DNA from: Escherichia phage vB_VIPECOMC06
Sequence record: PQ416618.1
Direction: 5' to 3' (one strand)
Length of the DNA: 64,000 nt
Both the position numbers and the translations under genes were made by a program. The stretch's first letter is position 1. Each line of letters begins with the position of its first letter. Under the pieces are notes generated by a model. The model made no database searches, was not told the origin of the DNA, and saw only the letters and a program-made list of their open reading frames with translations. Positions 2,055-55,654 of the stretch are shown here, one piece after another.

Positions 2055-2088
2055 GTTTACATGTGCTTCAAACATGATATTATAGACC
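2055..2088 (+). promoter_or_regulatory. Early (sigma70-type) promoter upstream of motA
   Basis: GTTTAC -35 and GATATTATAGAC extended -10 at T4-early spacing. Confidence 0.65.
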
Positions 2089-2122
2089 TATCAAAACAAA
2101 ACAACCAAATTGGAGAAATAAA

Positions 2123-2755
2123 ATGTCTAAAGTTACTTACATCATCAAAGCTTCTGAAAACGCTCTGAATGAAAAAACTGCTGCAATAATGGTTTATATC
2201 ATTAAGAACAACTTCACCACTGCTGCCAATGTCCGTGAAGCTCTGGAAGCGGAATACAATGCATCAGTTGTTAACTCTAACATTGGTGTATTGATTAAGA
2301 AAGGTTTAGTCGAAAAATCCGGTGATGGACTTATAGCAACAGGCGAAGCAATGGATATTATCCAAAAAGCTGCAGACCTCTTTGCCCAAGAAAATGCTCC
2401 AGAACTTCTTCAGAAACGTAACACTAGAAAAGCACGTGGAGTTACTCCTGAAATGCATGAATTAGCAAACTTTGTTTTTGAAAATATTAAAGATAAAGTT
2501 GAAGTTAAAGAAATTGGTGAAAACCGTAGTAACTTGGAAGTTCGATTTGCAAAACGAGTTCTAGGTATTCGTCAGATCGAAATTCGTCGAGATGGTTGTC
2601 TTAGAATATTTGCATACAACATGTCAGAAACTGAATCAAAACTGTTTACTTCTCTTGAAAATGATGTTAAAATTAAGATCGGTGGTAAATATACTTACAT
2701 TGACTTCCCTAATGTATCCAAAGAAATCATTACCCTTGTAACTAACGTACTGTGA
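2123..2755 (+). CDS. motA: Middle-transcription activator MotA
   Basis: 210 aa; MSKVTYIIKAS…SNIGVLIKKGLVEKSGDGLI… matches T4 MotA; RBS GGAGAAA. Confidence 0.95.
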   Translation: MSKVTYIIKASENALNEKTAAIMVYIIKNNFTTAANVREALEAEYNASVVNSNIGVLIKKGLVEKSGDGLIATGEAMDIIQKAADLFAQENAPELLQKRNTRKARGVTPEMHELANFVFENIKDKVEVKEIGENRSNLEVRFAKRVLGIRQIEIRRDGCLRIFAYNMSETESKLFTSLENDVKIKIGGKYTYIDFPNVSKEIITLVTNVL

Positions 2756-2765
2756 GGAATACATA

Positions 2766-3110
2766 ATGAATAAGCTGAATATTATTAACGAACTTCGTAA
2801 ATGTGCAGAACCTACTCAGGAAGGATGGGATATTTGGTACCACGGGGCTTATTTAGGGACAATTGTAAAGATTAAAGCTGGGTTATATTTAATTATTCGC
2901 GAAAATTCTGAATTCCCTAATGGAGTAGCTCCTGGCGGTATACGTAAAAACTACATGGCAGCGATCAGTTCATTTGTTGATGCAGCTTACGAAATCTATA
3001 AAGAAGATTATAAAGAATATCAGCAGTCACAACCGGTTATTCGTTCGATTGGTGTAAATAAACAAGCACAAAAATCTATTTGGCAACGTATTAAGGAATG
3101 GTTTAAATGA
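2766..3110 (+). CDS. Hypothetical early protein (motA.1 position)
   Basis: 114-aa ORF, tightly packed, overlapping stop/start with next ORF. Confidence 0.6.
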
Positions 3111-3568
3111 AATCATTTAAAGAACGTTTAGAGCTATTAGATTTGGCCTTGTCTCGTGAGACTCCTGAAAGTCTAGCAGAAAAATTCCAGTCCTATGGTT
3201 ATAATTATTCTGCTGATGATATAATGAATGAAGTTCCTGAAATCTGTTGGCAAACGTGTTATTGGAATAATGACCAAAAAGTTCAACGTGTTATAGTATG
3301 TGCAGCTAATAGGTTTAAATTGAAGAGTGGTGGAACTCTGGTTATTCCTGGAGTTCGTCATTACTCTAAAGATATGGCTGAAGTACTTGATATAGTTGGT
3401 CCTCAATTAGTCTCTCAACAAGTTTGTGGTGACGATCAAGGCTTTATCGACCAATACTCTAATTATTGGACTCGTGAAGAAGCAATGATTATTGCAACGT
3501 ATGCTGGACAGGTACGTATTGAACGTGGCGGAAGCGAGAAAGAACTTTATTCAGAGGACCTTTATTAA
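3107..3568 (+). CDS. Hypothetical protein, 153 aa
   Basis: ORF with coupled stop/start; no recognisable family. Confidence 0.6.
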
Positions 3569-3849
3569 TGAATATTAAACAACTCCAGAAAGATGCTATT
3601 GAATCACGTATCCAAGATATCAAACGTCTTAATCATATGATGGAAGAAAACTATGGTATGTATGCTAATCAGCCTGGTTGGGACGCTTTAGACCATCCTT
3701 ATTTGGTCAATTTATGTAAAGGTGATACGTTAGCAATTATTCGTGATGGGCTAAAACCTTTCTTGCGTGATATGTATATTAAAATGAACGAAGAAATTAT
3801 TAGCTCGTTGCAATATCAATTAAGGAAATTAGATGATGAGAATAATTGA
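3568..3849 (+). CDS. Hypothetical protein, 93 aa
   Basis: ORF in operon-like packing. Confidence 0.55.
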   Translation: MNIKQLQKDAIESRIQDIKRLNHMMEENYGMYANQPGWDALDHPYLVNLCKGDTLAIIRDGLKPFLRDMYIKMNEEIISSLQYQLRKLDDENN

Positions 3850-4060
3850 TTCTAAAGCAGATTATTTTAATTCTGTTAATGATAAGAATAAAGCTTTAAT
3901 TCGCCACTTTATTACTGAGATGGGATACACTGACTCTAAAGATTTGAAAGAGCACATTATCGAATGTTCTGTGGCTAAAAAGTTTTCTTTTACCGATAAA
4001 TGTTTAAACGAGGTTATAAAGCATTATGAACAATCTTGTAGCAAAACACGATTTCAATAA
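3833..4060 (+). CDS. Hypothetical protein, 75 aa
   Basis: ORF overlapping previous gene end. Confidence 0.5.
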   Translation: MMRIIDSKADYFNSVNDKNKALIRHFITEMGYTDSKDLKEHIIECSVAKKFSFTDKCLNEVIKHYEQSCSKTRFQ

Positions 4061-4134
4061 GGCTTCTGTTCATAAGGACAAGAAGAAATCAGAACTTCAA
4101 TCTAAACGCAAACAAAAACATAAGGGTAAAGACT

Positions 4135-4434
4135 ATGCTTACTAAAATCAAAGAAAATCCTGCCACTGAACTTGTTATTCGTTGTGAAGAACTTGCAGAG
4201 CTTTATCAGGTTAACCGAGAAGTGTATCGTAGTGTTATCATAGATATGGAAGATGAAGTCTGCTCTCGACTTGAGTTTAGTGTTGATTTCAGTCATTTTA
4301 AACCTGGTGAAATCACTATTGTATTTGGTTCTGACTACACCGAAGAACAGGCTCTTAATGCCCTAGAATATGAAATATCATTCTTCGACATACAGGACTA
4401 CATTGATAGTTATAAGGAACAATATGAGTCATAA
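4135..4434 (+). CDS. Acidic small protein, 99 aa; candidate Arn-like DNA mimic (by position and charge only)
   Basis: About 24 D/E in 99 aa; lies next to asiA where T4 carries arn; sequence identity to T4 Arn not verifiable from memory. Confidence 0.5.
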   Translation: MLTKIKENPATELVIRCEELAELYQVNREVYRSVIIDMEDEVCSRLEFSVDFSHFKPGEITIVFGSDYTEEQALNALEYEISFFDIQDYIDSYKEQYES

Positions 4435-4585
4435 TCTTCAGAACGTAGTAGAGGCCGAACGTGAGCGTGAGGCTTTAGTCTATAATGAACTATTAGCTCA
4501 GTTCTTAGCCTTACACTCGTATGAACAGGAAGACTATACCAATTACGTTAAAAGCGTAGAAAAAGCCGTTTACAATCAACACTGA
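4424..4585 (+). CDS. Hypothetical small protein, 53 aa (ATG start inside track ORF 4370..4585)
   Basis: ATG at 4424 preceded by AAGGAA; overlaps upstream stop by 11 nt. Confidence 0.35.
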   Translation: MSHNLQNVVEAEREREALVYNELLAQFLALHSYEQEDYTNYVKSVEKAVYNQH

Positions 4586-4631
4586 TAATGGTACTATATC
4601 CATATCAACTAAGTGGAATGAATAAAACGTT

Positions 4632-4904
4632 ATGAATAAAGACATTGAAATCGTACGTGAAATTATTACTATTGCTTCTATTTTGATTAAATTCTCTAGG
4701 GAAGATATTGTTGAAGACCGAGCAAGTTTCATCGGATTCTTGAATGAGATTGGAATTAAAAAAGATGGTCGGCAGCTAAATCAGAATTCGTTCAGAAAAC
4801 TAATTACAAATTTAACTGCCGAAGAAAAGAAAACACTGATTAGTGAATTCAACGAAGGTTTTGAAAATATTTATCGTCATTTAGCGATGTATTCTAACAA
4901 CTAA
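4632..4904 (+). CDS. asiA: Anti-sigma70 factor AsiA
   Basis: 90 aa; MNKDIEIVREIITIASILIKFSREDIVE… nearly identical to T4 AsiA. Confidence 0.95.
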   Translation: MNKDIEIVREIITIASILIKFSREDIVEDRASFIGFLNEIGIKKDGRQLNQNSFRKLITNLTAEEKKTLISEFNEGFENIYRHLAMYSNN

Positions 4905-5564
4905 TTATTTGGCCCTTCCTAGTATTCGGATCGCTTGGTTGCATATAGCCGCTAAGCGATCTTCCTCAAGTATATTACTCCCCTTATACCAATACATCGT
5001 CACAGTTCCGGCATAGATGTTATCCAAATTAAAGTATGGACAACTATACATATAAGAAAGTTCAGCAGTCTTAGATTTTGTAGGCAAAAATGCAAATTCT
5101 GATTTAGATGAGAAATGACGGCCACTTAAATGAATTATATATTCATTGGCCGTTTTATCCACCGGGAATCCGCCAAGGGACTTTTCAGAAATTGTGCTAG
5201 GTAGTTTGCCTTCATAAGCTATAAGGTCGACGAAATAATTTAAGTTTTTAGGTCTGAAAGAATACACAGCACTAAAATCTGCACCAGATGAGATATGAAC
5301 TATTTGCAGTTGTTCTAGAGCCGCAGATTCAAAACGTAAAGCTCGTTCTTTTTGGATTATTTCAGTATAAGTATCATACTTAGCTCTTACGTAATAATCC
5401 AGCAAAATACTTCCTTTGTACCATATTAGTGCCATTAGGAACAAAAGAATAATTACCGCTACTCGTGACATTAAAACCTTTCCAGTAGCGTTATCTTTGA
5501 AAATACGATCTAGCAACCCAAATAGAATATCACTAGGCGAAGATGATACTTTTGGTGTTGCCAT
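4905..5564 (-). CDS. t: Holin T
   Basis: 219 aa; N-terminus SPSDILFGLLDRIFKDNATGKVL, single TM, C-terminus …ILGRAK as in T4 gpt. Confidence 0.95.
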   Translation of the reverse strand: MATPKVSSSPSDILFGLLDRIFKDNATGKVLMSRVAVIILLFLMALIWYKGSILLDYYVRAKYDTYTEIIQKERALRFESAALEQLQIVHISSGADFSAVYSFRPKNLNYFVDLIAYEGKLPSTISEKSLGGFPVDKTANEYIIHLSGRHFSSKSEFAFLPTKSKTAELSYMYSCPYFNLDNIYAGTVTMYWYKGSNILEEDRLAAICNQAIRILGRAK

Positions 5565-5573
5565 AATACCTCC

Positions 5574-6125: not shown

Positions 6126-6132
6126 ATTATAA

Positions 6133-6150
6133 AAGGGACCGAAGTCCCTT
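6133..6150 (-). terminator. Stable UUCG hairpin between genes 37 and 38
   Basis: AAGGGACCGAAGTCCCTT; on the minus strand the loop reads CUUCGG. Confidence 0.5.
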
Positions 6151-6154
6151 CTCC

Positions 6155-15084: not shown

Positions 15085-15118
15085 GTTTACGCTTTCAAAT
15101 GAGTATGTTACTATAGAC
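15085..15118 (+). promoter_or_regulatory. Early promoter upstream of rnh
   Basis: GTTTAC … GTTACTATAGAC. Confidence 0.65.
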
Positions 15119-15146: not shown

Positions 15147-16064
15147 ATGGATTTAGAAATGATGTTGGATGAAGATTACAAAGAAGGTATTGCACTTGCC
15201 GACTTTAGTAACATTGCATTGGCAGCTGCATTAAACAACTTTGAAGACGGCGATAAAATTACTGTTCCGATGGTTCGCCATGTAATCTTGAATTCAATTC
15301 GTAAAAACGTAGTGATGTTCCGTAAGCAAGGCTATACAAAATTTGTATTGTGTATGGATAATGCTACTTCAGGTTATTGGCGTCGTGACTTTGCTTACTA
15401 TTACAAGAAAAATCGTAAAACCGATCGTGAAGCTTCAAAGTGGGATTGGGAAGGATATTTTACTGCACTCCGTCAAGTTGTTGATGAGATTAAGAAATAC
15501 ATGCCATACGTTGTAATGGATATTGACAAGTATGAAGCGGATGACCATATCGGTGTATTAACTAAATATTTGTCATTAGCTGGACATAAGGTATGTATTG
15601 TTGCATCAGATGGTGACTTTACACAATTACACAAATATCCTAACGTTAAACAGTGGTCGCCACCACAGAAAAAATGGGTTAAAATTAAGAACGGTTCTGC
15701 TGAAATTGATTGCATGACTAAAATTCTTAAAGGTGACCGTAAAGACGGCGTTGCATCTGTTCGAGTTCGTGGCGACTTCTGGTTTACCAGAGTTGATGGT
15801 GAACGAACTCCGAGCATGAAAACAACGATTATTGAAGCAATTGCCAATGACCGTTCTCAAGCTGAAGTATTATTAAGTGCGGAAGAATATAAACGGTATC
15901 AAGAAAATTTGGTTCTCATTGATTTTGATTATATCCCTGATAATATTGCTTCAACCATTATAGAGTATTATAACTCATATAAACCACAACCTAAAGGCAA
16001 GATTTATTCATACTTTGTAAAATCTGGTCTTTCTAAATTAACAAGTGTAATTAATGAATTCTGA
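15147..16064 (+). CDS. rnh: RNase H (5'-3' exonuclease/flap endonuclease)
   Basis: 305 aa; MDLEMMLDEDYKEGIALADF… matches T4 Rnh. Confidence 0.95.
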   Translation: MDLEMMLDEDYKEGIALADFSNIALAAALNNFEDGDKITVPMVRHVILNSIRKNVVMFRKQGYTKFVLCMDNATSGYWRRDFAYYYKKNRKTDREASKWDWEGYFTALRQVVDEIKKYMPYVVMDIDKYEADDHIGVLTKYLSLAGHKVCIVASDGDFTQLHKYPNVKQWSPPQKKWVKIKNGSAEIDCMTKILKGDRKDGVASVRVRGDFWFTRVDGERTPSMKTTIIEAIANDRSQAEVLLSAEEYKRYQENLVLIDFDYIPDNIASTIIEYYNSYKPQPKGKIYSYFVKSGLSKLTSVINEF

Positions 16065-16341: not shown

Positions 16342-16657
16342 TATTAAACCGGTTGATGAGGCCGGTTTATCTGAACAAGAATTAGCGGTAAAACACGATA
16401 AAGATGATATCGCTAAATTGCTTGACCGACAAGAAAACGGATTCATTATCGAATCCATGGTTGAACAATTTGGTATGTCTTATTTAGAAGCAACAACTGC
16501 TTTCTTGGAAGAAAATTCTATTCCAGAAACACAATTTGCTAAATTTATTCCTACAGGAATTGTTGAAAAAATTACAAGCGAAGCAATTGATGAAAACATG
16601 CTTCGCCCATCAGTTGCTCGTGGTGAAAAAACTAATACGTTAGATTTCTTATTATGA
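16319..16657 (+). CDS. 33: Late transcription co-activator gp33
   Basis: 112 aa; MTQFSL…ENSIPETQFAKFIP…KTNTLDFLL matches T4 gp33. Confidence 0.9.
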   Translation: MTQFSLSDIKPVDEAGLSEQELAVKHDKDDIAKLLDRQENGFIIESMVEQFGMSYLEATTAFLEENSIPETQFAKFIPTGIVEKITSEAIDENMLRPSVARGEKTNTLDFLL

Positions 16658-17337
16658 AATACGTTGTGTATAAAACTACCAATAAAATAAATGGTAAAAT
16701 TTATATAGGCGTACACAAAAAACATAAAGAGAAAGATTGGTATATTGGGTCTGGCCGCGCTATATTAGCGGCCAAAGCTAAATACGGACTAAAAAATTTT
16801 TATACTGAAGTTCTTTATGAATATGATAATGACAAGGACGCCTATAAAAAAGAAGCAGAATTGGTTAATGAAGATTTTGTTTTGCGAACTGATACTTATA
16901 ACCTGGTTCCAGGTGGTAAAGGTGGCCCTGGTAAAAAACAAAGTGATGAAGCTAAAAGGGCTATTTCACTTTCTAAAATAGGGAAACCTAGATCTGAAGA
17001 GACTAAGGCTAAAGTATCTAAAACCAGATTAGAAAGAAAAATACCATCACCTAATAAGGGTAAGAAACTATCTGAAGCTCATAAATTAGCTTTGAGTAAA
17101 GTCCGAAAAGGGCGAAAAACGAATAAGCCGATGCCTGATTCAACCAAAGAAGCTCTTAGAATAGCAAATTCAAAGCCGCATTCTAAAGAAAGAACTATTA
17201 AAAAACAAAAACCTATAATTATTGATGGTATAAAATACTCATCATGTACAGAAGTTTCGGATGTTTTTAATATTTCTGCATCTCTAGTTACGTATAGACT
17301 TAAATCTTCAAAATGGCCTGGATGGAACTATGATTAA
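16654..17337 (+). CDS. Free-standing GIY-YIG homing endonuclease (Seg-like)
   Basis: 227 aa; N-terminal GIY-YIG motifs (GKIYIG … WYIGSG), central basic repeats (NUMOD-like), C-terminal HTH-like region; inserted between 33 and 59 with overlapping stop/start at both ends. Confidence 0.85.
   Translation: MKYVVYKTTNKINGKIYIGVHKKHKEKDWYIGSGRAILAAKAKYGLKNFYTEVLYEYDNDKDAYKKEAELVNEDFVLRTDTYNLVPGGKGGPGKKQSDEAKRAISLSKIGKPRSEETKAKVSKTRLERKIPSPNKGKKLSEAHKLALSKVRKGRKTNKPMPDSTKEALRIANSKPHSKERTIKKQKPIIIDGIKYSSCTEVSDVFNISASLVTYRLKSSKWPGWNYD
16654..17337 (+). mobile_element. Putative homing endonuclease gene insertion between genes 33 and 59
   Basis: Seg-type GIY-YIG ORF at a junction that I recall as directly adjacent in T4. 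Confidence 0.5.
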
Positions 17338-19000: not shown

Positions 19001-19007
19001 TAAATTG

Positions 19008-19029
19008 GGAGACTTCGGTCTCCCTTTTG
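19008..19029 (+). terminator. Intrinsic terminator after gene 32
   Basis: GGGAGACTTCGGTCTCCC + TTTT. Confidence 0.7.
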
Positions 19030-19055
19030 AGTATCTGTAAATTGCCGAAAAAGTT

Positions 19056-19088
19056 GTTTACTTTTCCTTTAAACATGATACTATAGAC
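19056..19088 (+). promoter_or_regulatory. Early promoter upstream of ORF 19114
   Basis: GTTTAC … GATACTATAGAC. Confidence 0.65.
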
Positions 19089-19113
19089 TTATCAACAACA
19101 TGAGGAAATCAAA

Positions 19114-19500
19114 ATGGAAATCGGAAAATCTTATATCATTAACCCTTTATTTAAAGACGACTTTGCTAACGAGTGCCGTTGCAATGCAATGATGCTAAAT
19201 TTAATAGAGAAGCACGGACCTAGTTTTGTTGTAGATGAAATGGAAAGTGATGATTGTGCTGGTGACTGTGTGGTACGTGTAACTATGGAAGACGGCACTG
19301 AATACATGGCCGGTGGCCCACTTGAGACGTATTTTGAGATTTACTCTGAAGAATTCAAATACTTTACTGAGGTAACTTTAGAAAAGCCTCAACCTACTAA
19401 CGAAGGTATAACTTTAGGTGTAACAAAAATCCATTGTATCGTAGATGAAACCAACGTCGACGAAATCATCAAACTTTTGCAAAAAACTTTTAAAAAGTAG
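19114..19500 (+). CDS. Hypothetical early protein (frd.x position)
   Basis: 128-aa ORF with GAGGAAA RBS and early promoter upstream. Confidence 0.6.
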   Translation: MEIGKSYIINPLFKDDFANECRCNAMMLNLIEKHGPSFVVDEMESDDCAGDCVVRVTMEDGTEYMAGGPLETYFEIYSEEFKYFTEVTLEKPQPTNEGITLGVTKIHCIVDETNVDEIIKLLQKTFKK

Positions 19501-19538
19501 TTTACAACAAGATAGGGCTATGTTATAGTAGCCCTATC
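19500..19538 (+). promoter_or_regulatory. Early promoter with stem-loop (PeSL-like) upstream of ORF 19562
   Basis: GTTTAC -35; -10 TGTTATAGTA flanked by perfect 10-bp inverted repeat GATAGGGCTA / TAGCCCTATC. Confidence 0.65.
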
Positions 19539-19561
19539 AAATAAAAGTGAAGGAGAATAAA

Positions 19562-21257
<1,696 letters not shown>

Positions 21258-25524: not shown

Positions 25525-25556
25525 TTTACATGCCACAAGGATTGTGGTACAATTTA
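25524..25556 (+). promoter_or_regulatory. Early promoter with stem-loop upstream of rnlA
   Basis: GTTTAC; inverted repeat CCACAA/TTGTGG; -10 TACAAT. Confidence 0.6.
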
Positions 25557-25571: not shown

Positions 25572-26705
<1,134 letters not shown>

Positions 26706-26707: not shown

Positions 26708-26740
26708 GTTTACAAACACCACGGAAGGTGTTACTATGGC
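26708..26740 (+). promoter_or_regulatory. Early promoter with stem-loop upstream of alc
   Basis: GTTTAC; inverted repeat AACACC/GGTGTT; -10 GTTACTAT. Confidence 0.6.
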
Positions 26741-26767: not shown

Positions 26768-27268
26768 ATGAATATGCAATTGATTACTAACGATATGGTT
26801 GTGGCAGCATTTGGTGATTCTACAGACGGAATCCGAGTCTTTAAGAAAGGACGTCCAGTTGGTTATCTTACTGACCTACGTGTTACACTGGCCAAAAATG
26901 CTAAAAAGAAGTTAAAGCAAAAAGAATATTCAACACGTTACACCGAAGAGAAACGTGAAGCGATGCCAGAAGCAGTTAATGCCATGGTAGAATTTCTTCA
27001 AAACAATTTGACTAAATATGACGCTAATGTGTTCATTAATATTAGTCAACCAAATGTACATATCGCAGGTATAAAATTCTACATTATTTGCGACCCTCTT
27101 ACCGACAAATTCAACCGCCTCGGAATTTCAAGTCCATATCATACAGCAGAAGAGTTGTGTGTATTGTTTGAATCGTACAAAATCCAGTGCGATGGTCCGA
27201 AAACCGTTCTTATCAATGGATTATCCCGAGATGAAATCATTGAGATTATTAAAACATGCTTAAAGTAA
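26768..27268 (+). CDS. alc: Alc (transcription termination on dC-DNA)
   Basis: ATG at 26768 after GAGGAG RBS gives MNMQLITNDMVVAAFG… resembling T4 Alc; track start 26705 lies inside an early promoter. Confidence 0.8.
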   Translation: MNMQLITNDMVVAAFGDSTDGIRVFKKGRPVGYLTDLRVTLAKNAKKKLKQKEYSTRYTEEKREAMPEAVNAMVEFLQNNLTKYDANVFINISQPNVHIAGIKFYIICDPLTDKFNRLGISSPYHTAEELCVLFESYKIQCDGPKTVLINGLSRDEIIEIIKTCLK

Positions 27269-27899: not shown

Positions 27900-28114
27900 C
27901 TAAAGAACAGCACGAATACATTAAAGGGCTTATCTATGAATCTGAAATGGCGGCTATGATTTATGGGCGACAGATTCAACGATTAGAATCTTTGCCTCCG
28001 ACTAACGACCGCTTGTTAGTTCAGTCTCGTGCTAATCTGAAAAATGAATATCAGAATAAGTGGGCAGTAGCGACTAAAGCTCTTCACGAGTATATTGAAT
28101 CTTTAGTAAAATAG
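27890..28114 (+). CDS. Hypothetical protein, 74 aa (pseT.1 position)
   Basis: ORF overlapping o-spanin stop. Confidence 0.5.
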   Translation: MPMTKEQHEYIKGLIYESEMAAMIYGRQIQRLESLPPTNDRLLVQSRANLKNEYQNKWAVATKALHEYIESLVK

Positions 28115-28148
28115 TTTACAAACTCTCGGGAGCAGAGTATAATGCTCC
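28114..28148 (+). promoter_or_regulatory. Early promoter with stem-loop upstream of ORF 28150
   Basis: GTTTAC; GGAGCA … TATAAT … TGCTCC inverted repeat around -10. Confidence 0.6.
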
Positions 28149-28149
28149 T

Positions 28150-29383
<1,234 letters not shown>

Positions 29384-29787: not shown

Positions 29788-30063
29788 ATGTTCCCAACTT
29801 ATTCTGAAATTGTAAAGGTAGTCTTCAGTCAGATTATTGCTAATAATATGTTTGAAGTGTTTGATAATGCAGCCGAACTCAGAGTTCATGCTCAACTAAC
29901 TCATGTACTCAATGCTTTGCTCCCAGACCAAGTAGATTCTATTGCTATTACTCTTCTCCCTGGGTCTGCACACGTCATAGTGGTATTTGATCTTGACGGC
30001 GATTTAGTTATCCAATGTGATATCAATTTCGGTACACAAAAAATTGAATGCAAAGCAATTTAA
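29788..30063 (+). CDS. Hypothetical protein, 91 aa
   Basis: ORF. Confidence 0.5.
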   Translation: MFPTYSEIVKVVFSQIIANNMFEVFDNAAELRVHAQLTHVLNALLPDQVDSIAITLLPGSAHVIVVFDLDGDLVIQCDINFGTQKIECKAI

Positions 30064-30065
30064 TG

Positions 30066-30099
30066 GTTTACAACATGGTGGAGTTGTGATACTATAACT
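30066..30099 (+). promoter_or_regulatory. Early promoter upstream of ORF 30124
   Basis: GTTTAC … GATACTATAACT. Confidence 0.6.
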
Positions 30100-30123
30100 C
30101 TACCAACAAATGAGGAAATAGAA

Positions 30124-30360
30124 ATGCTAAGTGAAAACCCAATTACAGTACACGAATTTCAGATTAAAGTAAAAGAATTTGCTCAAGCACTCATCAATAA
30201 AGTGTCTGAACGTTTCCAAGATGCAACATTACGAGTTATTCAAGAATCTCCACGTTCTTTTCTCATAATCGTTAATCCTAAAGATGGTGACCAAATTACT
30301 AATCTTAAATTAGGCAGTGATGGTCTTGTTGAAGCAACTCGAGTATATGGAACACTATAA
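30124..30360 (+). CDS. Hypothetical early protein, 78 aa
   Basis: ORF with GAGGAAA RBS and early promoter upstream. Confidence 0.55.
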   Translation: MLSENPITVHEFQIKVKEFAQALINKVSERFQDATLRVIQESPRSFLIIVNPKDGDQITNLKLGSDGLVEATRVYGTL

Positions 30361-30480: not shown

Positions 30481-31473
30481 ATGTTACCTGTCATCAGAAA
30501 ACTTATTTCTCCAAAAGAACTGGCTGAGATTATTCCTTTGTCGGAAGCTTACGCATCACAAGTGGCTTCTCATCGCGAACAAGTTAATTCGATTATGAAC
30601 GGTGAAGACCCACGCAAACTTATTGTTGTAGGTCCTTGTTCAATTCATGACCCTATTGCTGCTGTTGAATACGGCAAACGTCTGGCTGAACTTCAAACTC
30701 GTCTTCCTAATGTTCTGTTAGTGATGCGCGTTTATTTTGAAAAGCCTCGAACTACCGTAGGTTGGAAAGGTCTTGTAAATGATCCATATCTTGACGGAAG
30801 TTTTGATATGAACCACGGTCTTATAGTTGCACGAACATTGTGTCGTAAACTTCTACGCATGGGACTTCCATTAGCAACTGAAGTATTAGACCCATTCACG
30901 ATTAAGTATCTTTCTGGTATTTTCTCATGGGTTGCTATTGGCGCCCGTACGACTGAAAGTCAGACACATCGTGAAATTGCTTCAGGTCTACCGATGTGCG
31001 TAGGCTTCAAGAACGCAACCAATGGTTCTATTAAAGTAGCTACAGACGCGATGTATAGTGCCGCCTGGCCTCATCGGTATATGGGTATGGACGTCGATGG
31101 TACTGTAGGCATTGTTGAAGCTGAAGGTAATCAGAATACGCATATCGTATTGCGTGGCGGGACTAACGGCCCGAACTATCATTCTTCTGATATTCAAGAA
31201 GCTTCTAACAAAGCAAGTGCATTAGGTCTGAATCATTATGTAATGGTTGACTGTAGCCATGCAAACGCTGATGGGTATTATAGCAATCAAATTGGTATTG
31301 GTAAAAATTTAGCAGCTAATGATTTGGTCAAAGGAATTATGATAGAATCATTCCTACATGAAGGAAATCAAAAAATTTCTGATAATATGTCCTATGGCGT
31401 TTCCGTTACCGATGCGTGCATCAGTTGGGAACAAACTAAAGAGCTGTTAACTTATATTAATAAGGTTCAATAA
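30481..31473 (+). CDS. 3-deoxy-D-arabino-heptulosonate-7-phosphate (DAHP) synthase, class I (AroG/AroF/AroH-like)
   Basis: 330 aa; colinear with E. coli AroG: …VVGPCSIHD…, MRVYFEKPRTTVGWKGLVNDP, GARTTESQTHRE, DCSHAN, MIESFLHEGNQ, SVTDACI; all four metal-ligand positions (Cys, His, Glu, Asp) present; TAATG coupling to cd. Confidence 0.9.
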   Translation: MLPVIRKLISPKELAEIIPLSEAYASQVASHREQVNSIMNGEDPRKLIVVGPCSIHDPIAAVEYGKRLAELQTRLPNVLLVMRVYFEKPRTTVGWKGLVNDPYLDGSFDMNHGLIVARTLCRKLLRMGLPLATEVLDPFTIKYLSGIFSWVAIGARTTESQTHREIASGLPMCVGFKNATNGSIKVATDAMYSAAWPHRYMGMDVDGTVGIVEAEGNQNTHIVLRGGTNGPNYHSSDIQEASNKASALGLNHYVMVDCSHANADGYYSNQIGIGKNLAANDLVKGIMIESFLHEGNQKISDNMSYGVSVTDACISWEQTKELLTYINKVQ

Positions 31474-33463: not shown

Positions 33464-33485
33464 GGGAGACTTCGGTCTCCCTTTT
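33464..33485 (+). terminator. Intrinsic terminator after small ORF 33279
   Basis: GGGAGACTTCGGTCTCCC + TTTTGTG. Confidence 0.7.
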
Positions 33486-33518
33486 GTGCGTTTAGGGCAG
33501 AAAAAGTTTAAAAAAGAT

Positions 33519-33551
33519 GTTTACTCTCCTGTAGGATGTGTTACTATAGAC
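33519..33551 (+). promoter_or_regulatory. Early promoter upstream of ORF 33589
   Basis: GTTTAC … GTTACTATAGAC. Confidence 0.65.
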
Positions 33552-33588
33552 TTGTACCACCTAATCAATAAAACAACCGGAGAATAAA

Positions 33589-33960
33589 ATGAACATTATC
33601 AATTTAAATGCTACAATTAAATGCCGTGACCATGATGGATATAAATCTCAAGTTGTTAACGAGTTACAGTGGATGGTTCGTTCAGTTCAAGGTGATGTGG
33701 TTTATTGTACAACTCCTGATGGCCCTTCAGACGATTTTTGTTATCATATCGAAATCGAAAACTTTTTCACTGGTGAAATTTACCGTCTGAATTCTACAGT
33801 TTATGGTTGTATTCGTTCTAAAACTTACGAAGATGAAGAGACTGGTTACTCTGAAGATGTTGTATGGTACGAAAATGCCAGAAATCGCGCAGAGGCATTA
33901 ATCGAGAAGATTAAAGCAAAAGGTGTTATCGATTCAGCTAAGTGGACAAAAATCAAATAA
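33589..33960 (+). CDS. Hypothetical early protein, 123 aa
   Basis: ORF with own early promoter and RBS GGAGAA. Confidence 0.6.
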   Translation: MNIINLNATIKCRDHDGYKSQVVNELQWMVRSVQGDVVYCTTPDGPSDDFCYHIEIENFFTGEIYRLNSTVYGCIRSKTYEDEETGYSEDVVWYENARNRAEALIEKIKAKGVIDSAKWTKIK

Positions 33961-33964
33961 AAAT

Positions 33965-34004
33965 GTTTACTTTGGTACAGGTTTTGTTATTATAGACCTG
34001 TACC
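33965..34004 (+). promoter_or_regulatory. Early promoter with stem-loop (PeSL-like) upstream of ORF 34035
   Basis: GTTTAC; -10 GTTATTATAGAC flanked by inverted repeat GGTACAGG / CCTGTACC. Confidence 0.65.
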
Positions 34005-34034
34005 AACAAACAACTTAAACATCTGGAGAATAAA

Positions 34035-34400
34035 ATGAACTACATCAACTTCGAACGTAAATATGTTTCTAACGGTATTGCTGGTTCTATTGATACGATT
34101 TGCTTATGGAAACATAATAACGGTTCAGTATGTGAAATTGAGCAGTATATGACTCCTAATTACGTTTATATGCGATTTGAAAATGGCATCACGGTTTCAA
34201 TCACGATGGAAGGTTCTACTTTTAAAATCGCTTTAGATGATGATTTCCGTCAACGTGATTTAGGTACCCATCCTTGCTGGAACGGCGTTAATCGTAAGCT
34301 TCTGGTTAAAACCTGGATTCGTCACATCCTGAGCAACCGAGCTAAACCTGAACATCTCGAAGCAATCTTTGATGTAGTTCTGAATGAATTCGATATCTAA
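34035..34400 (+). CDS. Hypothetical early protein, 121 aa
   Basis: ORF with own early promoter; followed by UUCG hairpin. Confidence 0.6.
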   Translation: MNYINFERKYVSNGIAGSIDTICLWKHNNGSVCEIEQYMTPNYVYMRFENGITVSITMEGSTFKIALDDDFRQRDLGTHPCWNGVNRKLLVKTWIRHILSNRAKPEHLEAIFDVVLNEFDI

Positions 34401-40293: not shown

Positions 40294-40326
40294 TTTACAA
40301 ACACATGGATGTGTGATACTATCATC
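40294..40326 (+). promoter_or_regulatory. Early promoter upstream of ORF 40352
   Basis: GTTTAC; near-palindromic ACACATGGATGTGT; -10 GATACTAT. Confidence 0.6.
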
Positions 40327-40351: not shown

Positions 40352-40645
40352 ATGAAATCTATGCTTCGCTTTAATGGTCAAGAACTAGTAGTTGAAGATG
40401 TTATCCCAGCGGATGATGCTTTTAACGAAGCTGTGATTGACGAATTGAATCGAGTATTCCCAGGTGCATTCCATATTGCTATGGAACCTCTTAAAAACTT
40501 TCGTGACCCTGAGCACACTGATCAAATTTTTGTCGGTGTAGTGACAGGTCATTTAGAAACAGAGGTACCAATGGTTGTATTAGTTAAATACTCTAAAGAT
40601 GATACTCCATTCCGAGCACCAGCATTCCTTTCATTCCGTAAATAA
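40352..40645 (+). CDS. Hypothetical early protein, about 97 aa
   Basis: ATG at 40352 after GAGGAAAA with early promoter upstream; track ORF 40280 starts inside the promoter. Confidence 0.5.
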   Translation: MKSMLRFNGQELVVEDVIPADDAFNEAVIDELNRVFPGAFHIAMEPLKNFRDPEHTDQIFVGVVTGHLETEVPMVVLVKYSKDDTPFRAPAFLSFRK

Positions 40646-48930: not shown

Positions 48931-48972
48931 TTTGCCTATGGTTTTGGCCCTTCCAAAAAGGTCGGGCCTTTT
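48931..48972. terminator. Bidirectional terminator between small ORF 48753 (+) and uvsW.1 (-)
   Basis: GGCCC…GGGCC hairpin flanked by T runs on both sides. Confidence 0.55.
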
Positions 48973-48976
48973 TTAA

Positions 48977-49210: not shown

Positions 49211-49221
49211 TTTTATCTCCT

Positions 49222-49237
49222 AAGGGCCGAAGCCCTT
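49222..49237 (-). terminator. Hairpin between uvsW and uvsW.1
   Basis: AAGGGCCGAAGCCCTT immediately after uvsW stop, followed on minus strand by RBS and ATG of uvsW.1. Confidence 0.45.
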
Positions 49238-50750: not shown

Positions 50751-50779
50751 GTCAAATTACCATGTAATAAATATAGTTA

Positions 50780-50787
50780 TATTTATA
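50780..50787 (-). promoter_or_regulatory. Late promoter for uvsW
   Basis: TATAAATA on minus strand about 30 nt upstream of uvsW start. Confidence 0.55.
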
Positions 50788-50800
50788 ATGAGGAAATACC

Positions 50801-51469: not shown

Positions 51470-51478
51470 GGATAACTT

Positions 51479-52609
51479 ATGGCTTTTACAGTTGATATAA
51501 CTCCTAAAACACCTACTGGAGTTATAGATGAGACTAAGCAGTTTACTGCTACTCCCAGTGGTGAAACTGGAGGTGGAACTATTACCTATGCATGGAGTGT
51601 AGACGATGCTCCTCAAGTAGGATCGGCAGAAACTTTTGATTATGTGTTAAAAGGACCTGCTGGAACAAAAACAATTAAAGTTGTTGCAACAAATACTATT
51701 CCTGACTCTGAAGCTGAAACAGCTGAAATTAGTACAACTATTACAGTTCAAAACAAAACACAGACAACTACGTTGGCAGTAACTCCTAATAGTCCTCCAG
51801 CAGGAGTAATTGGAACCCCAGTTCAATTTACTGCTGCCTTAGCTTCTCAACCGGCTGGAGCGTCTGCTACGTATCAGTGGTATGTAGATGATTCACAGGT
51901 TGGTGGAGAAACTAACTCTACATTTAGCTATACTCCAACTACAAGTGGAGTTAAAAAAATCAAGTGTGTAGCTCAAGTAACCGCAACAGATTATGATGCA
52001 CTGAGCGTTACTTCTAATGAAGTATCATTGACAGTTAATAAGAAGACAATGAATCCACAGGTTACATTGACTCCTCCTTCTATTAACGTTCAGCAAGATG
52101 CTTCGGCTACATTTACTGCTAATGTAACTGATGCTCCTGAAGAAGCGCAAATTGCGTATTCATGGAAGAAAGATTCTTCTCCTGTAGAAGGGTCAACTAA
52201 CGTATACACCGTTGATACATCATCTATTGGAAGTCAAACTATTGAAGTTACTGCAACTATTACTGCAACTGATTACGATAGCAAAACTATTACAGCAGAA
52301 GGTCAAGTTCAAGTGACTGATAAAGTTGCTCCAGAACCAGAAGGTGAATTACCTTATGTTCATCCTCTTCCACATCGTACTTCAGCTTATATCTGGTGCG
52401 GTTGGTGGGTTATGGATGAAATCCAAAAAATGACTGAAGAAGGTAAAGATTGGAAAACTGACGACCCGGATAGTAAATACTACCTGCATCGTTACACTCT
52501 TCAGAAGATGTTGAAAGACTATCCGGAAGTTGATGTTCAAGAATCACGTAATGGATACATCATTCATAAAACTGCTTTGGAAACTGGTATCATCTATACA
52601 TATCCATAA
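51479..52609 (+). CDS. hoc: Head outer capsid protein Hoc (tandem Ig-like domains)
   Basis: 376 aa, same length as T4 Hoc; repeated Ig-like segments (…TPKTPTGVIDETKQFTATPSG…, …TPNSPPAGVIGTPVQFTAAL…). Confidence 0.85.
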   Translation: MAFTVDITPKTPTGVIDETKQFTATPSGETGGGTITYAWSVDDAPQVGSAETFDYVLKGPAGTKTIKVVATNTIPDSEAETAEISTTITVQNKTQTTTLAVTPNSPPAGVIGTPVQFTAALASQPAGASATYQWYVDDSQVGGETNSTFSYTPTTSGVKKIKCVAQVTATDYDALSVTSNEVSLTVNKKTMNPQVTLTPPSINVQQDASATFTANVTDAPEEAQIAYSWKKDSSPVEGSTNVYTVDTSSIGSQTIEVTATITATDYDSKTITAEGQVQVTDKVAPEPEGELPYVHPLPHRTSAYIWCGWWVMDEIQKMTEEGKDWKTDDPDSKYYLHRYTLQKMLKDYPEVDVQESRNGYIIHKTALETGIIYTYP

Positions 52610-52614
52610 TCGTA

Positions 52615-52640
52615 AGGGGCTTCGGCCCCTTTCTTCGTTT
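52615..52640 (+). terminator. Intrinsic terminator after hoc
   Basis: AGGGGCTTCGGCCCCT + TTCTTCGTTTTT. Confidence 0.65.
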
Positions 52641-52702
52641 TTAAAGCATACAAAACACATCTTGAGATTGATGTATAATGGCACAAACCAAATGATACGG
52701 GA

Positions 52703-52903
52703 TTGATTATGAGAGTTGAAGTTGAAGTTTATACATTACATGAGGCGGGATTTTCATTCGTAGAAATTGCTCAAAAAATCGGTTTACAACCTAAAGAAGT
52801 TGGATTACTATGGACTAAAGCCGAGACAGCTCGGTCAAAGTTTAAAGCAAAAGAAAAAGTTGTATACCGTAAACGTTTGATTAACAAAAAGGTGAAGAAA
52901 TGA
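52703..52903 (+). CDS. Hypothetical small protein with HTH-like segment
   Basis: 66 aa; …EAGFSFVEIAQKIGLQPKEV… resembles a helix-turn-helix. Confidence 0.5.
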   Translation: MIMRVEVEVYTLHEAGFSFVEIAQKIGLQPKEVGLLWTKAETARSKFKAKEKVVYRKRLINKKVKK

Positions 52904-53151
52904 GTTTTGCACAGGAATTAAGAGAAAGGGCGCTGGCCACTAAAGCCAATTTGTTGAAAGATTTTATTACTAACTTCTCTGTGATGGCAGAGAAAGCCGC
53001 TGACAAAGGCCAGACACAATTTACATACTATCCGTCAAAGAATGATTTAACTATCACCGAGCAAATCGGGGAATGGTTCCGTGATAATGGCTTTCAGTAC
53101 AAAATTAATCATGACCAGCGTGATGGGCACTGGATAGAAATCAAGTTCTAG
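52900..53151 (+). CDS. Hypothetical protein, 83 aa
   Basis: ORF coupled to previous gene. Confidence 0.5.
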   Translation: MSFAQELRERALATKANLLKDFITNFSVMAEKAADKGQTQFTYYPSKNDLTITEQIGEWFRDNGFQYKINHDQRDGHWIEIKF

Positions 53152-53152
53152 T

Positions 53153-53180
53153 ATGCTTTACATTTTTTGATGGTATAATG
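53153..53180 (+). promoter_or_regulatory. Middle promoter (MotA box) upstream of rnlB
   Basis: ATGCTTTA followed by TGGTATAAT -10. Confidence 0.5.
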
Positions 53181-53270
53181 AATCTAGGTTCTATCCATTC
53201 AAATTAAACATTGGGCCAGAGATAGAGTCTCTGCTAATTATTTTGATATTATTATTTATAATGGTGATTT

Positions 53271-54269
53271 ATGTTTAAGAAATACAGCAGTCTTGAAAAC
53301 CACTACAACTCTAAGTTTATTGAAAAACTCTACACTAATGGTTTGACTACTGGTGTTTGGGTAGCACGTGAGAAAATCCATGGGACCAACTTCTCGTTAA
53401 TAATTGAACGTGACAACGTCACATGCGCCAAGCGCACAGGCCCTATTCTTCCAGCAGAAGATTTTTACGGCTATGAAATCGTACTCAAGAAGTATGATAA
53501 AGCTATTAAAGCCGTTCAGGAATTAATGCACGCAGATCGAGCAGTATCATATCAAGTATTCGGTGAATTCGCTGGTGGTGGAATCCAGAAAGGTGTTGAC
53601 TACGGTGAAAAAGATTTTTATGTGTTCGATATCATTATCAATACAGAAAGTGGTGATAATACGTATTTGACCGATTACGAAATGCAAGATTTCTGTAATG
53701 AATTCGGTTTTAAAATGGCACCAATGCTTGGTCGTGGCACATTTGATTCTCTTATCATGATTCCAAACGACCTTGATTCCGTCTTAGCCGCTTATAATGC
53801 TACTGCGTCAGAAGACCTTGTAGAAGCAAATAATTGTGTATTTGATGCTAATGTTATTGGCGATAATACAGCAGAAGGTTATGTTCTGAAGCCTTGTTTC
53901 CCTAAATGGCTGCCAAACGGTACTCGTGTAGCTATTAAGTGCAAGAACTCTAAATTCAGTGAAAAGAAAAAGTCTGATAAGCCTATTAAAACTCAGGTTC
54001 CATTAACCGAAATTGACAAAAACTTGCTTGATGTTCTAGCTTGTTATGTTACATTAAACCGTGTTAATAATGTGATTTCTAAGATTGGGACTGTAACGCC
54101 AAAAGATTTTGGCAAAGTGATGGGATTAACTGTTCAAGATATTCTGGAAGAAACTTCTCGTGAAGGTATTGTATTAACATCATCTGATAATCCGAATCTT
54201 GTTAAGAAAGAATTAGTCCGAATGGTGCAAGATGTTCTGCGTCCTGCATGGATTGAATTAGTATCATAA
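53271..54269 (+). CDS. rnlB: RNA ligase 2
   Basis: 332 aa; [21 protein letters not shown]…[16 protein letters not shown]… matches T4 Rnl2. Confidence 0.9.
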
Positions 54270-54277
54270 CGAAAAAG

Positions 54278-54298
54278 GGACCTTACGGTCCCTTTTTA
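54278..54298. terminator. Bidirectional terminator between rnlB (+) and gene 24 (-)
   Basis: GGGACCTTACGGTCCC flanked by A run and T run. Confidence 0.7.
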
Positions 54299-55579
54299 TT
54301 AATCAATAATAATTTTAGGCAATTTAACACCGAGTAAAACAGACAAGTCTGAACGTCCTGCCATTTTATCCATGTCCCCACCATCAATTATTCTCGCTTC
54401 TTTTTCATCTTTTGCTACTGTGTAAGGATTTGCTGATAAAGCATATCTAACCAATAATCCGATAGATGGTTGCAAGCTTTCTGGATCAACTACGACTTTA
54501 AATGCACCGACATGTTCCGGGTCATCTAAATCTACTCCTTCAGTGTATGGAGCATAAAAGACGGACCCTACAATTTCTTTTTCGCCGATATTTTCTACAA
54601 CACCCACAATAACATAATCTAACGGACTGTTGGTATCGCAGTAAAGAGGTAATCCATTTGCCAAGAATCCATAAGCATTTTGTGAAAGATACTTGTCATC
54701 TTCTGGCTTATGTTTTAACCAACCGGAAGCAGCAAGAATAGCAGCTGCACGAGCTGAGGCTACACAAAACGTTGCAGTATAAGTTGTCTCTTTTTGAATG
54801 TGTGATACCATTTCACACACCATTCGATATAACGAACGACCTGCTTCTGGAGCGGATGCATAGCTCAAGTCAATAAATCCGGTGTCAGTAATTCCAGTAA
54901 CTTTATAACGTTTCGATACAGTAATTAAAGACTGAAGAATATCTTTATTAATTTCATCAGCCATTTCAGTGGCAAGCAAATCTTCTAAGAAGTTAGGGGC
55001 ATCAAATCCATTCGCTTCCAAATCTTGCGCTAATTCAACCGTGAGGCCAGTTTTAAGTTTACGAGATTTGACTGAAGTTTGCCATTTATTAATCTGGAAT
55101 CTTGCATCAGCAATTTCGCTACCAGAACTTTCAAATTTGCTTGTTACCGCTGCATCTGAAAATAACCGTACCTTTAAATGAACGACTGCAATCTGAAGAG
55201 CTAATTCTAGATCACTTTCTTGAATATCTGCAAATGGTGTATCTTCTAACACTTTATAGACGATATTATTATATTTGAAAAAATCGCCTTTATTTAGTGT
55301 GTCTTTTGATTCTTCTGTGAGCTCAGTAATTTTTTCTCGGTCTACATATCCAACTTCGCCTGCATAAGTAGCACCAGTTTTAAATGTGAATTCGTTATCT
55401 GGGTTAAGATATTTGATACCATAAAAAGCAGCAACAGGTTGATTAGTTCTTTGTGTTGCTACAATGTCAGAATATATTAATTTAGTCGTAGCGCGAGTCA
55501 AAGCAACGAGATTTGGGCGACCGATTGAGTTGCTAGTAGACGTTGTAGATTCACGCAATAATTTTTGGATTTTACTCAT
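54299..55579 (-). CDS. 24: Capsid vertex protein gp24
   Basis: 426 aa; …LLRESTTSTSNSIGRPNLVALTRATTKLIYSDIVATQRTNQPVAAFYG… matches T4 gp24. Confidence 0.95.
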   Translation of the reverse strand: MSKIQKLLRESTTSTSNSIGRPNLVALTRATTKLIYSDIVATQRTNQPVAAFYGIKYLNPDNEFTFKTGATYAGEVGYVDREKITELTEESKDTLNKGDFFKYNNIVYKVLEDTPFADIQESDLELALQIAVVHLKVRLFSDAAVTSKFESSGSEIADARFQINKWQTSVKSRKLKTGLTVELAQDLEANGFDAPNFLEDLLATEMADEINKDILQSLITVSKRYKVTGITDTGFIDLSYASAPEAGRSLYRMVCEMVSHIQKETTYTATFCVASARAAAILAASGWLKHKPEDDKYLSQNAYGFLANGLPLYCDTNSPLDYVIVGVVENIGEKEIVGSVFYAPYTEGVDLDDPEHVGAFKVVVDPESLQPSIGLLVRYALSANPYTVAKDEKEARIIDGGDMDKMAGRSDLSVLLGVKLPKIIID

Positions 55580-55606
55580 TGCATTTTTTCCTTATGTGAT
55601 ATAGAT

Positions 55607-55614
55607 TATTTATA
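55607..55614 (-). promoter_or_regulatory. Late promoter for gene 24
   Basis: TATAAATA on minus strand about 28 nt upstream of gp24 start. Confidence 0.7.
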
Positions 55615-55620
55615 AAGATT

Positions 55621-55654
55621 GTTTACAACGTATTTGGTATGTGATACTATAGAC
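55621..55654 (+). promoter_or_regulatory. Early promoter upstream of ORF 55681 (inside late head module)
   Basis: GTTTAC … GATACTATAGAC. Confidence 0.65.

Follow-up and report, generated by a model that had tools for sequence, protein, structure and literature searches.

We analysed a 64,000-nucleotide stretch of DNA from Escherichia phage vB_VIPECOMC06 (sequence record PQ416618.1; this whole stretch is called the window below) and found in it a family of 14 sites with the layout of T4-type early promoters, half of which are joined to a stem-loop. The reading that we consider probable is that these sites are the sigma70 early promoters of a Mosigvirus, that half of them are fused to a stem-loop serving the upstream transcription unit, as composites of the promoter-early stem-loop (PeSL) type, and that the resulting cassettes occasionally act as crossover points.

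A family of predicted early promoters

The motif GTTTAC-N17/18-TAYWRT was matched 14 times in the whole window, against 0.28 matches expected from shuffles, and all matches lay on the plus strand (site starts 2055, 4568, 15085, 19056, 19500, 25524, 26708, 28114, 30066, 33519, 33965, 40293, 52782 and 55621; the promoters are named P2055 and so on after these starts). The initial annotation had reported at least 12 plus-strand sites combining GTTTAC with a -10 element, and this count bears it out, with no site on the minus strand. Its description of the -10 as a (G)TTA(C/T)TATAGAC-like string held in part: the hexamer TAYWRT is present at all 14 sites and the whole string TAYTATAGAC at 6 of them. 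In sigma70 terms the hexamer is TTTACN and the spacer 16-17, and an extended -10 (TGn) occurs in 12 of the 14; the local consensus is biased to TACTAT in the -10, followed by AGAC. The 24 nt upstream of the -35 have an A+T content of 62-88%, compared with ~62% for the window, an AAAAAG-type tract lies upstream in seven sites, and in eight sites the stop codon of the upstream gene falls within a few bases of the -35. On the other side a Shine-Dalgarno (SD) sequence and an ATG follow the -10 by 27-41 nt in 13 of the 14 sites. The cassette as a whole runs from an A-rich upstream region through GTTTAC(A), usually a TGn, a -10 TAYTAT and a short CA-rich leader to an SD (often GGAG) and an ATG.

An unbiased repeat finder returned the same cassettes as the leading direct-repeat families (D1, D2 and D6-D9). 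When a two-block position weight matrix was made from the 14 sites, the family scored 26-39 bits, values that are circular because the matrix was built from these very sites; the runner-up on the plus strand scored 17.4 (2644, inside motA) and the best minus-strand site 13.7. A generic sigma70 consensus scan of the window failed to pick out the family (74 sites against 64.9 expected), and a generic terminator scan was no better (14 against 12.4).

By megablast the window belongs to the genus Mosigvirus (RB69-like relatives of T4); it is 94-98% identical to many published genomes of the genus and fully identical to none. Its genes follow the T4 order backwards, and the plus strand is therefore the early-gene strand. 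The first blocks are 52, motA and asiA on the plus strand, then t and 38-34 on the minus strand. The next plus-strand block holds rnh, dsbA, 33, 59, 32, frd, td, nrdA, nrdB and denA and continues through rnlA, alc, pseT, cd, 31, rIII, 30.9-30.1, 30 and alt, after which the baseplate and head genes follow. No minus-strand gene was found inside the early block at 15-40 kb. Three of the promoters lie further on, in the colinear structural region at 40-56 kb.

The GenBank record of T4 (AF158101) has no promoter features except one note, so orthology to T4 promoters was assigned from position and motif alone. In the T4 locus the motif precedes rnh, frd.3, frd.1, alc, cd.2, 30.8 and 30.7, and at least seven sites of the window coincide with T4 motifs; an early promoter, Pe133295, is mentioned in the record as lying between cd.2 and cd.3. 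Promoter positions are stable across nine Mosigvirus relatives. By every sequence-level feature sought, the 14 sites are T4-type sigma70 early promoters, and they would be expected to have promoter activity; the early-promoter reading of the initial annotation is upheld by the -35/TGn/-10 layout, the early-gene strand and the T4 motif positions. Host RNA polymerase would use the sites right after infection for the expression of motA, asiA, alc and other early genes.

The MotA-dependent middle promoter, in which a MotA box (TGCTTnA) stands 11-13 nt upstream of the -10 in place of a -35, was considered as another class for these sites and rejected, as no match to its pattern coincides with an early site. 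P2055 has a TGCTTCA, but only 7 nt ahead of its -10. The pattern TGCTTNA-N11-13-TANNNT has 14 matches of its own against 3.8 expected, 13 of them on the plus strand, and this set is distinct from the early promoters. MotA-box-like sites include 15947, 20321, 29077, 32355 (before gene 31), 48003 and 53154 (before rnlB).

One further claim had been that the promoters sit in front of open reading frames (ORFs) of unknown function and mark them as a mobile accessory repertoire. This claim was not borne out. All 14 downstream genes fall in conserved Pfam/PHROG families or are annotated T4 orthologues, and the products of five have a known function (MotA, AsiA, RNase H, RNA ligase 1 and Alc); two belong to PHROG families whose function is unknown. 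Since all downstream genes are conserved genes of T4 type, the marking of unknown mobile ORFs is unsupported, and the sites, stable in position, are long-lived regulatory sites and not markers of a mobile repertoire.

Stem-loops within and beside the promoters

Folds of 60 nt beginning at the -35 were compared with 200 shuffles for each promoter. Four promoters carry an embedded stem, with z scores of -5.6 (19500), -5.1 (33965), -4.7 (30066) and -2.6 (28114), and for the three stems at or below -4.7 none of the 200 shuffles folded as well. The z for 26708 was -0.5 and the remaining nine sites were above -1.8. As a group the 14 promoter windows had a mean of -8.9 kcal/mol compared with -6.0 kcal/mol in random windows of equal length (P ~0.001). 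No Rfam match was found anywhere in the window.

The hairpin of P19500 (19511..19538, -18.7 kcal/mol; this and all features of the window given below are on the plus strand) has perfect 10-bp arms, GATAGGGCTA / TAGCCCTATC, with an 8-nt loop, and spans the spacer and the -10; its cassette (19475..19564) has the -10 TATAGT at 19524-19529, the SD GGAGAATAAAA and the ATG at 19562 of a DUF5417, frd.1-like gene, the T4 motif being at 146143. In the P33965 hairpin (33972..34006, -20.1 kcal/mol), 11 perfect bp (TTGGTACAGGT / ACCTGTACCAA) enclose a 13-nt loop that holds the -10 (TATTAT, 33988-33993), and the cassette (33940..34037; T4 motif at 129918) continues with the SD GGAGAATAAAA to the ATG of gp30.7 at 34035. 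The hairpin of P30066 (30076..30105, -16.9 kcal/mol) has 13 pairs including G.U, with the core GGTGGAGTT / AACTCTACC, around the -10 at 30090-30095; the cassette (30041..30126) ends at the ATG of a DUF7320, cd.2-like gene at 30124. At P28114 (hairpin 28128..28149; 60-nt fold -13.5 kcal/mol) the arms GGGAGCA / TGCTCCT lie around a -10 TATAAT (28138-28143) that has no TGn, in a cassette (28089..28185) whose ATG at 28183 opens a pseT.2-like gene (phrog_2364). The repeat at 28129-28148 has 6 perfect bp, or 7 when the outer G.T is counted, and this outer pair is A-T in 6 of 9 relatives.

Four repeats bracketing a -10 had been listed in the initial annotation. Their coordinates were correct, although the one given as 33974-34004 really extends to 33972-34006; those at 19511, 33974 and 28129 are above chance, and the one at 26714 is not, being a repeat at 26715-26732 with 6-bp arms and a z of -0.5. 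That many of the promoters carry a repeat around the -10 was thus an overstatement, since only 4 of the 14 have an embedded stem above chance, and the stem at 30066 and three terminator-promoter composites had been missed. As a separate observation at the frd.1 site, T4 (AF158101, 146083-146015, minus strand) has an unannotated 22-codon hydrophobic ORF, MFAPYIMAAVMLVCLYLLIKAC, with a GGAG SD, located after the promoter at 146143 and ahead of frd.1, which starts at 146004; this ORF is also present in two further loci compared and is absent from the window, where the cassette adjoins the frd.1-like gene.

The three other composites have a terminator directly upstream of the promoter. The first (2014..2033, GGGAGCTTCGGCTCCC followed by TTTT) comes after gene 52 and 21 nt upstream of P2055, whose cassette (2030..2125) has its -35 at 2055-2060, a TGn, the -10 TATTAT at 2078-2083, an SD GGAG and the ATG of motA (MotA domains) at 2123. 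The second (19007..19028, GGGAGACTTCGGTCTCCC followed by TTTT) comes after gene 32 and 27 nt upstream of P19056 (cassette 19031..19116, -10 at 19079-19084, leader ATCAACAACATGAGGAAA, ATG at 19114 of an FRD2 family gene, frd.2). The third (33464..33485) comes after gene 30.9 and 33 nt upstream of P33519 (cassette 33494..33591, -10 at 33542-33547, SD GGAGAATAAAA, ATG of gp30.8 at 33589) and is annotated as a terminator in WFbE185. A pattern search for the canonical UUCG-loop terminator, GGGAG(A)CTTCGG(T)CTCCC followed by TTTT, gave 3 matches with 0 expected, and an identical 23-mer, GGGAGACTTCGGTCTCCCTTTTG, occurs at 19007-19029 and 33464-33486 (repeat family D13). The UUCG-loop terminators form a repeat family of their own, with related copies at 2014 and 34410. 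Separately, the spacer of P19056 contains a UUUCCUU (window 19056-19115) able to base-pair with GAGGAAA, the SD of the FRD2 gene; with a z of -1.65 and poor conservation this pairing may be due to chance.

Promoter/stem-loop composites therefore number 7 of 14, four embedded and three with an upstream terminator, and the two kinds differ in the room available to them. In all four cases of an embedded hairpin, -1 to +4 nt separate the upstream stop codon from the -35, and for all three separate terminators the gap from stop codon to -35 is 55-117 nt. At a tight junction, with the stop codon abutting the -35, the hairpin is built into the promoter itself, with its 5' arm in the spacer, the -10 in the loop and the 3' arm just downstream; at a roomier junction a canonical UUCG-loop terminator stands just upstream of the promoter, as at P2055, P19056 and P33519.

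The cassettes of the other seven promoters complete the family. P4568 (4543..4634) has its -10 TACTAT at 4592-4597 and the ATG of asiA at 4632, with no significant hairpin (z -0.6); P15085 (15060..15149; T4 motif at 150763) has its -10 at 15109-15114 and the ATG at 15147 of rnh, so annotated in relatives, again with no hairpin (z +1.3). At P25524 (25499..25583; -10 TACAAT at 25548-25553, ATG of rnlA at 25581) there is a weak spacer hairpin, CCACAA/TTGTGG (z -1.1), and at P26708 (26683..26770; -10 at 26732-26737, ATG of alc at 26768) the spacer repeat AACACC/GGTGTT already mentioned. P40293 (40268..40354; z +1.1) adjoins the alt stop codon and has its -10 at 40317-40322 and the ATG of a DUF5498 gene at 40352, and P55621 (55596..55683), between genes 24 and 23, has its -10 at 55645-55650 and the ATG of a phrog_6003 gene at 55681. 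P52782 (52757..52902), after hoc, has its -10 at 52806-52811, no TGn, and an 88-nt leader before the ATG at 52900 of a phrog_2416 gene, which is followed by rnlB; it is the sole member of the family with a long leader, and this leader contains a small hairpin, GCCGAG-ACA-GCTCGG (~52820-52834). At the alc promoter of T4 (record ~136336-136277, minus strand) we noticed a long hairpin (-24.4 kcal/mol, z -6.9) whose 5' arm lies in the promoter spacer and whose 3' arm takes in the alc SD, which would be hidden only in read-through RNA. This structure is not conserved at window 26708.

The embedded stems recur outside the window. The orthologous T4 promoters fold too, with z scores of -3.9 (frd.1), -5.6 (cd.2) and -4.8 (30.7), the cd.2 stem, orthologous to that of P30066, being GGTAGAGTT / AGCTCTACC. 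At the frd.1 promoter three arm solutions were found by lineage, GATAGGGCTA/TAGCCCTATC, AGGCTAT/ATAGCCT and AGGGTA/TACCCT, which differ by the replacement of a G-C by a C-G pair and by one inserted base pair, with the 5' arm shifted within the spacer. In the ungapped alignment of this promoter the three stem types stand in different registers, so that a single consensus structure could not be scored and the argument rests on direct reading of the sequences. Other T4-like contigs have unrelated arms at a similar position, GAGGGTTA/TAACCCT and CCGGAAGTT/AGACTTCCGG. Single-protein searches of viral contigs yielded 14 loci for 30.7, 2 for cd.2 and 6 for frd.1, and scanning these contigs for the DNA pattern proved more productive. 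At the frd.1 site the -35 is degraded in several Mosigvirus relatives (GTGTAC, GTGTAT or GTTTAT), which nevertheless keep the stem. Across the stems at least 7 arm positions carry G.U-type substitutions and 0 carry A.C, a count that is small and was made without a phylogeny. The sense fold beat the antisense fold in 13 of 13 variants tested. The alternative arms, the restriction of changes to the G.U type and the advantage of sense over antisense folds argue for a structure in plus-sense single-stranded nucleic acid, and they speak against the repeats being a protein operator, a DNA cruciform or a terminator of antisense transcription.

If the sites were plain early promoters and the inverted repeats incidental to them, the repeats would be chance palindromes in AT-rich spacers or products of the partly self-complementary TGTGATAC/TATA context. 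Ten of the 14 promoters, P26708 among them, do fold no better than shuffles (z above -1.8), a recurring GATA...TATC pairing belongs to the conserved promoter and leader sequence, and the 30.7 stem is without covariation. Such an account has difficulty with the three stems that no shuffle equalled and the fourth at -2.6, with the stems kept at orthologous T4 promoters and the three complementary arm pairs at frd.1, and with substitutions of G.U type only in folds stronger in the sense direction; we regard it as improbable.

A second possibility is that the repeats act on double-stranded DNA, either as operators for a dimeric regulator of early shut-off or as cruciforms that tune melting or serve as recombination hot spots. 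Many promoters have the repeat similarly placed with respect to the -10, the shut-off of T4 early transcription is not fully explained (PMC2988021), and in the work of Arbiol et al. one mini-circle crossover fell within the loop of a PeSL stem-loop (PMC2839356). However, loop length ranges from 8 to 15 nt, and the arm sequences are wholly different between promoters and therefore offer no common protein site. Where one strand has a G.T pair the other has an A.C mismatch, and still all changes seen were of the G.T type, the sense folds were always the more stable, and the documented recombination junctions lie in the leader/SD part of the cassette and not in the stems. A function at the level of DNA is very unlikely on these grounds.

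The comparison of strands also bears on the idea that the hairpins terminate antisense (minus-strand) transcription, with the T-rich complement of the A-rich upstream element following the stem. A consensus scan does list 19538-19511 as terminator-like on the minus strand, and the region upstream of the -35 is A-rich. But the long T-run begins at least 13 nt past the stem instead of adjoining it, the wobble pairs become A.C mismatches on that strand, antisense folds are weaker by 0.1-8.8 kcal/mol, and the 15-40 kb early block has no minus-strand gene. We give this idea almost no credence.

In the reading that we prefer, the stem-loops would serve the upstream transcription unit. A transcript started at an embedded promoter lacks the 5' arm, and the hairpin can therefore form only in RNA that reads through from upstream. 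In this read-through RNA the hairpin would most likely attenuate or terminate transcription or protect the 3' end of the upstream message, and we infer a role of this kind, as attenuator, terminator or 3'-end protector. A role for the upstream unit is consistent with the position directly after the stop codon, with the fact that the annotators of WFbE185 labelled the homologue of 19511-19538 a terminator, and with the finding in RB49 that one PeSL stem-loop lowered the expression of a downstream lacZ to roughly the extent that rrnB T1 did (PMC2839356). The SD GGAGAATAAAA of P19500, P33519 and P33965 fits the RegB cleavage consensus GGAGRAYARAA (PMC3014915), and the GGAG SDs are a possible target of this nuclease; more speculatively, a hairpin upstream of the RegB cut could protect the upstream fragment.

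Cassettes as probable sites of gene gain and loss

Insertions and deletions were compared in nine Mosigvirus genomes over 14.7-40.3 kb and in one genome over 1-6 kb, and a match table was used for 40-56.5 kb. Three of the events have their junctions inside cassettes. In TU01 (MZ560701, 2150-2550) gene 52 and motA are separated by an additional ORF of 216 nt with a copy of the P2055 cassette on either side, each copy ending in GGAGAAATAAAATGTCTAAA. In AV115, which has no gene 30.8, the P33519 cassette runs into the 30.7 coding sequence, and the junction is within the GGAGAATAAAATGAAC common to the P33519 and P33965 cassettes. In S143_2 an extra ORF follows P19056, inserted at the leader/SD and flanked by repeats of ATCAACAA...GAGGAAA...ATG. 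With three junctions inside them, the cassettes can serve as places of crossover, in keeping with the PeSL model, and in AV115, S143_2 and TU01 alike the crossover falls in the leader/SD part of the cassette and not in the stem-loop. A small stem-loop, GGGCT...AGCCC, stands ahead of the second motA-cassette copy in TU01.

The sequence shared between cassettes is short in most cases. The most extensive pair, at 33502 and 33948 (33948-34051), covers 104 nt at 75% identity and flanks gene 30.8 (family D6); the 3' half of P33519 resembles a copy of the 3' half of P33965. The other cassette repeat families cover 33-54 nt at 60-77% identity, and the longest exact shared stretches are 13-21 nt, P55621 and P19056 having a 21-nt exact stretch in common. 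Stretches of this kind, 13-21 nt exact and up to 104 nt at 75%, would let the cassettes occasionally delete or insert the intervening ORF. In relatives the variable block that follows 30.7 has a promoter of its own.

Several observations weigh against parts of the preferred reading. Half of the promoters (7 of 14) have no stem-loop above chance. The sequence after the embedded hairpins is A/C-rich: a U-tract directly after the stem was found in none of the four (AAATAAAAG at 19539, TATGGATAA at 28150, AACAAATGA at 30106 and CAAACAACT at 34007), so these stems fall outside the definition of a canonical intrinsic terminator, which is the main weakness of a terminator role. In the 30.7 stem the 8-bp core is almost invariant in nine distinct orthologues including T4 (one G.U variant), with a loop that varies. 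Pair counting across these nine orthologues gave no covariation, none being available from so invariant a core, and the invariance would also fit a sequence-specific constraint. The G.U count carries the limits given with it above. As for recombination, most indels in relatives are not at cassettes. Homing endonucleases or introns account for five of ~13 events in 15-40 kb (seg, the introns of td and nrdB, an HNH gene ahead of nrdA and an endonuclease following pseT), and several others fall at junctions between genes that have repeats of 14-15 nt but no promoter; in 1-6 kb and 40-56 kb the only indel near a promoter was the TU01 event at motA. Events at cassette junctions are thus a minority whose enrichment over other intergenic DNA is not established, and of the modular shuffling that had been proposed for these elements, three indels with junctions inside cassettes are what stands.

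Other variable genes of the region were noted in passing. At 28473-28487 the window is without a 192-nt ORF (pseT.1-like) that is present in 9 of 9 Mosigvirus relatives, the junction being a 15-nt repeat with no promoter, and over 28150-28200 the ORF before it has a leader and opening codons unlike those of all relatives. A seg-like homing endonuclease gene (GIY-YIG type; window 16654-17337) lies between genes 33 and 59; it is also found in six relatives and is absent from AV112, S143_2 and p000v. The relatives vary in the td intron, the HNH gene before nrdA, the nrdB intron and the endonuclease after pseT. The early region also contains, between cd.2 and cd, a DAHP synthase (aroF-like) gene (window 30481-31473), an auxiliary metabolic gene whose annotation agrees in relatives and which is absent from the T4 locus examined.

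Relation to known early promoters and promoter stem-loops

T4 early promoters have been described in terms of UP, -35, TGn and -10 elements (PMC2988021), and Nolan et al. 2006 predicted 57 early promoters in RB69, with C preferred at -3 to -1 (PMC1524935). The sites of the window share with these the -35 GTTTAC, the spacing, the TGn, the -10 TAnnnT, the A-rich upstream region, the preference for C before the start site, the placement upstream of early genes and the strand, and nothing essential is different.

The T4 genes soc and 49 have their promoter inside a stem-loop. Gene e has a transcript-specific RNA structure, its promoter lying inside a stem-loop that only the longer transcript forms (PMC3014915). 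The embedded hairpins of the window are alike in that the promoter splits the hairpin: read-through RNA would have both arms and locally initiated RNA only the 3' arm. They differ in that e, soc and 49 have a late promoter and an SD concealed by the hairpin, whereas the window has early promoters and its four hairpins end 20-30 nt before the SD. The T4 alc promoter is the only case we noticed that pairs with its SD. A broader proposal would make the embedded hairpins a general, sense-strand-specific device of T4-like early regions, one that would work on read-through RNA because the promoter splits the hairpin. RNA reading through would be stopped, paused, processed or stabilised, and RNA started locally would consist of the 3' arm and an open leader only. 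We offer this tentatively and hold it to be rather doubtful. No description or test of an early-promoter version of the late-promoter arrangement of e, soc and 49 was found in the literature. If the proposal is true, compact gene junctions insulate neighbouring early units at no intergenic cost, and in cases like T4 alc, whose SD is paired with the 5' arm, such a design would additionally make translation depend on the type of transcript.

For vB_VIPECOMC06 the list of sites provides an annotation of 14 early promoters, three terminators and four embedded hairpins. The evidence that promoter-embedded stems are selected as RNA structures, obtained at the sequence level, bears on how tightly packed early genes are insulated, and the TU01, AV115 and S143_2 junctions are natural examples of gene gain and loss through cassettes.

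The closest described counterpart is the PeSL cassette, known from RB49/phi1, PST/T4 and nt-1/KVP40 (Arbiol et al. 2010, PMC2839356; Comeau et al. 2014, PMC4122927), in which a stem-loop in the spacer or around the -10 is one described arrangement (PMC2839356). Both are compact units of an upstream stop codon, an AT-rich tract, an early promoter, a stem-loop, an SD and an ATG. The RB49 type, with the stem-loop between -35 and -10 or over the -10, and the PST/T4 type, with the stem-loop just upstream, are both represented in the window, and in both systems some ORF gains and losses between close relatives have their junctions in cassettes. There are also differences. A stem-loop is present in only 7 of the 14 window promoters, and its arms are not a G-run and a C-run. 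The window cassettes mostly share exact stretches of 13-21 nt, whereas PeSLs have ~100 bp of similarity, a length that one pair in the window reaches (104 nt at 75% identity). The downstream genes are conserved members of T4 families and not ORFans, and most indels of the region are homing endonucleases or introns or fall at gene junctions lacking a promoter. The match to PeSLs first proposed for these sites holds for the architecture of half the promoters and fails for the preferential link to ORFans in hyperplastic regions. PeSLs have been examined by reporter assays for terminator activity and by inverse PCR for mini-circles (PMC2839356). Early promoters and PeSLs have both been described before, and the window adds to them a further Mosigvirus example, real but ordinary.

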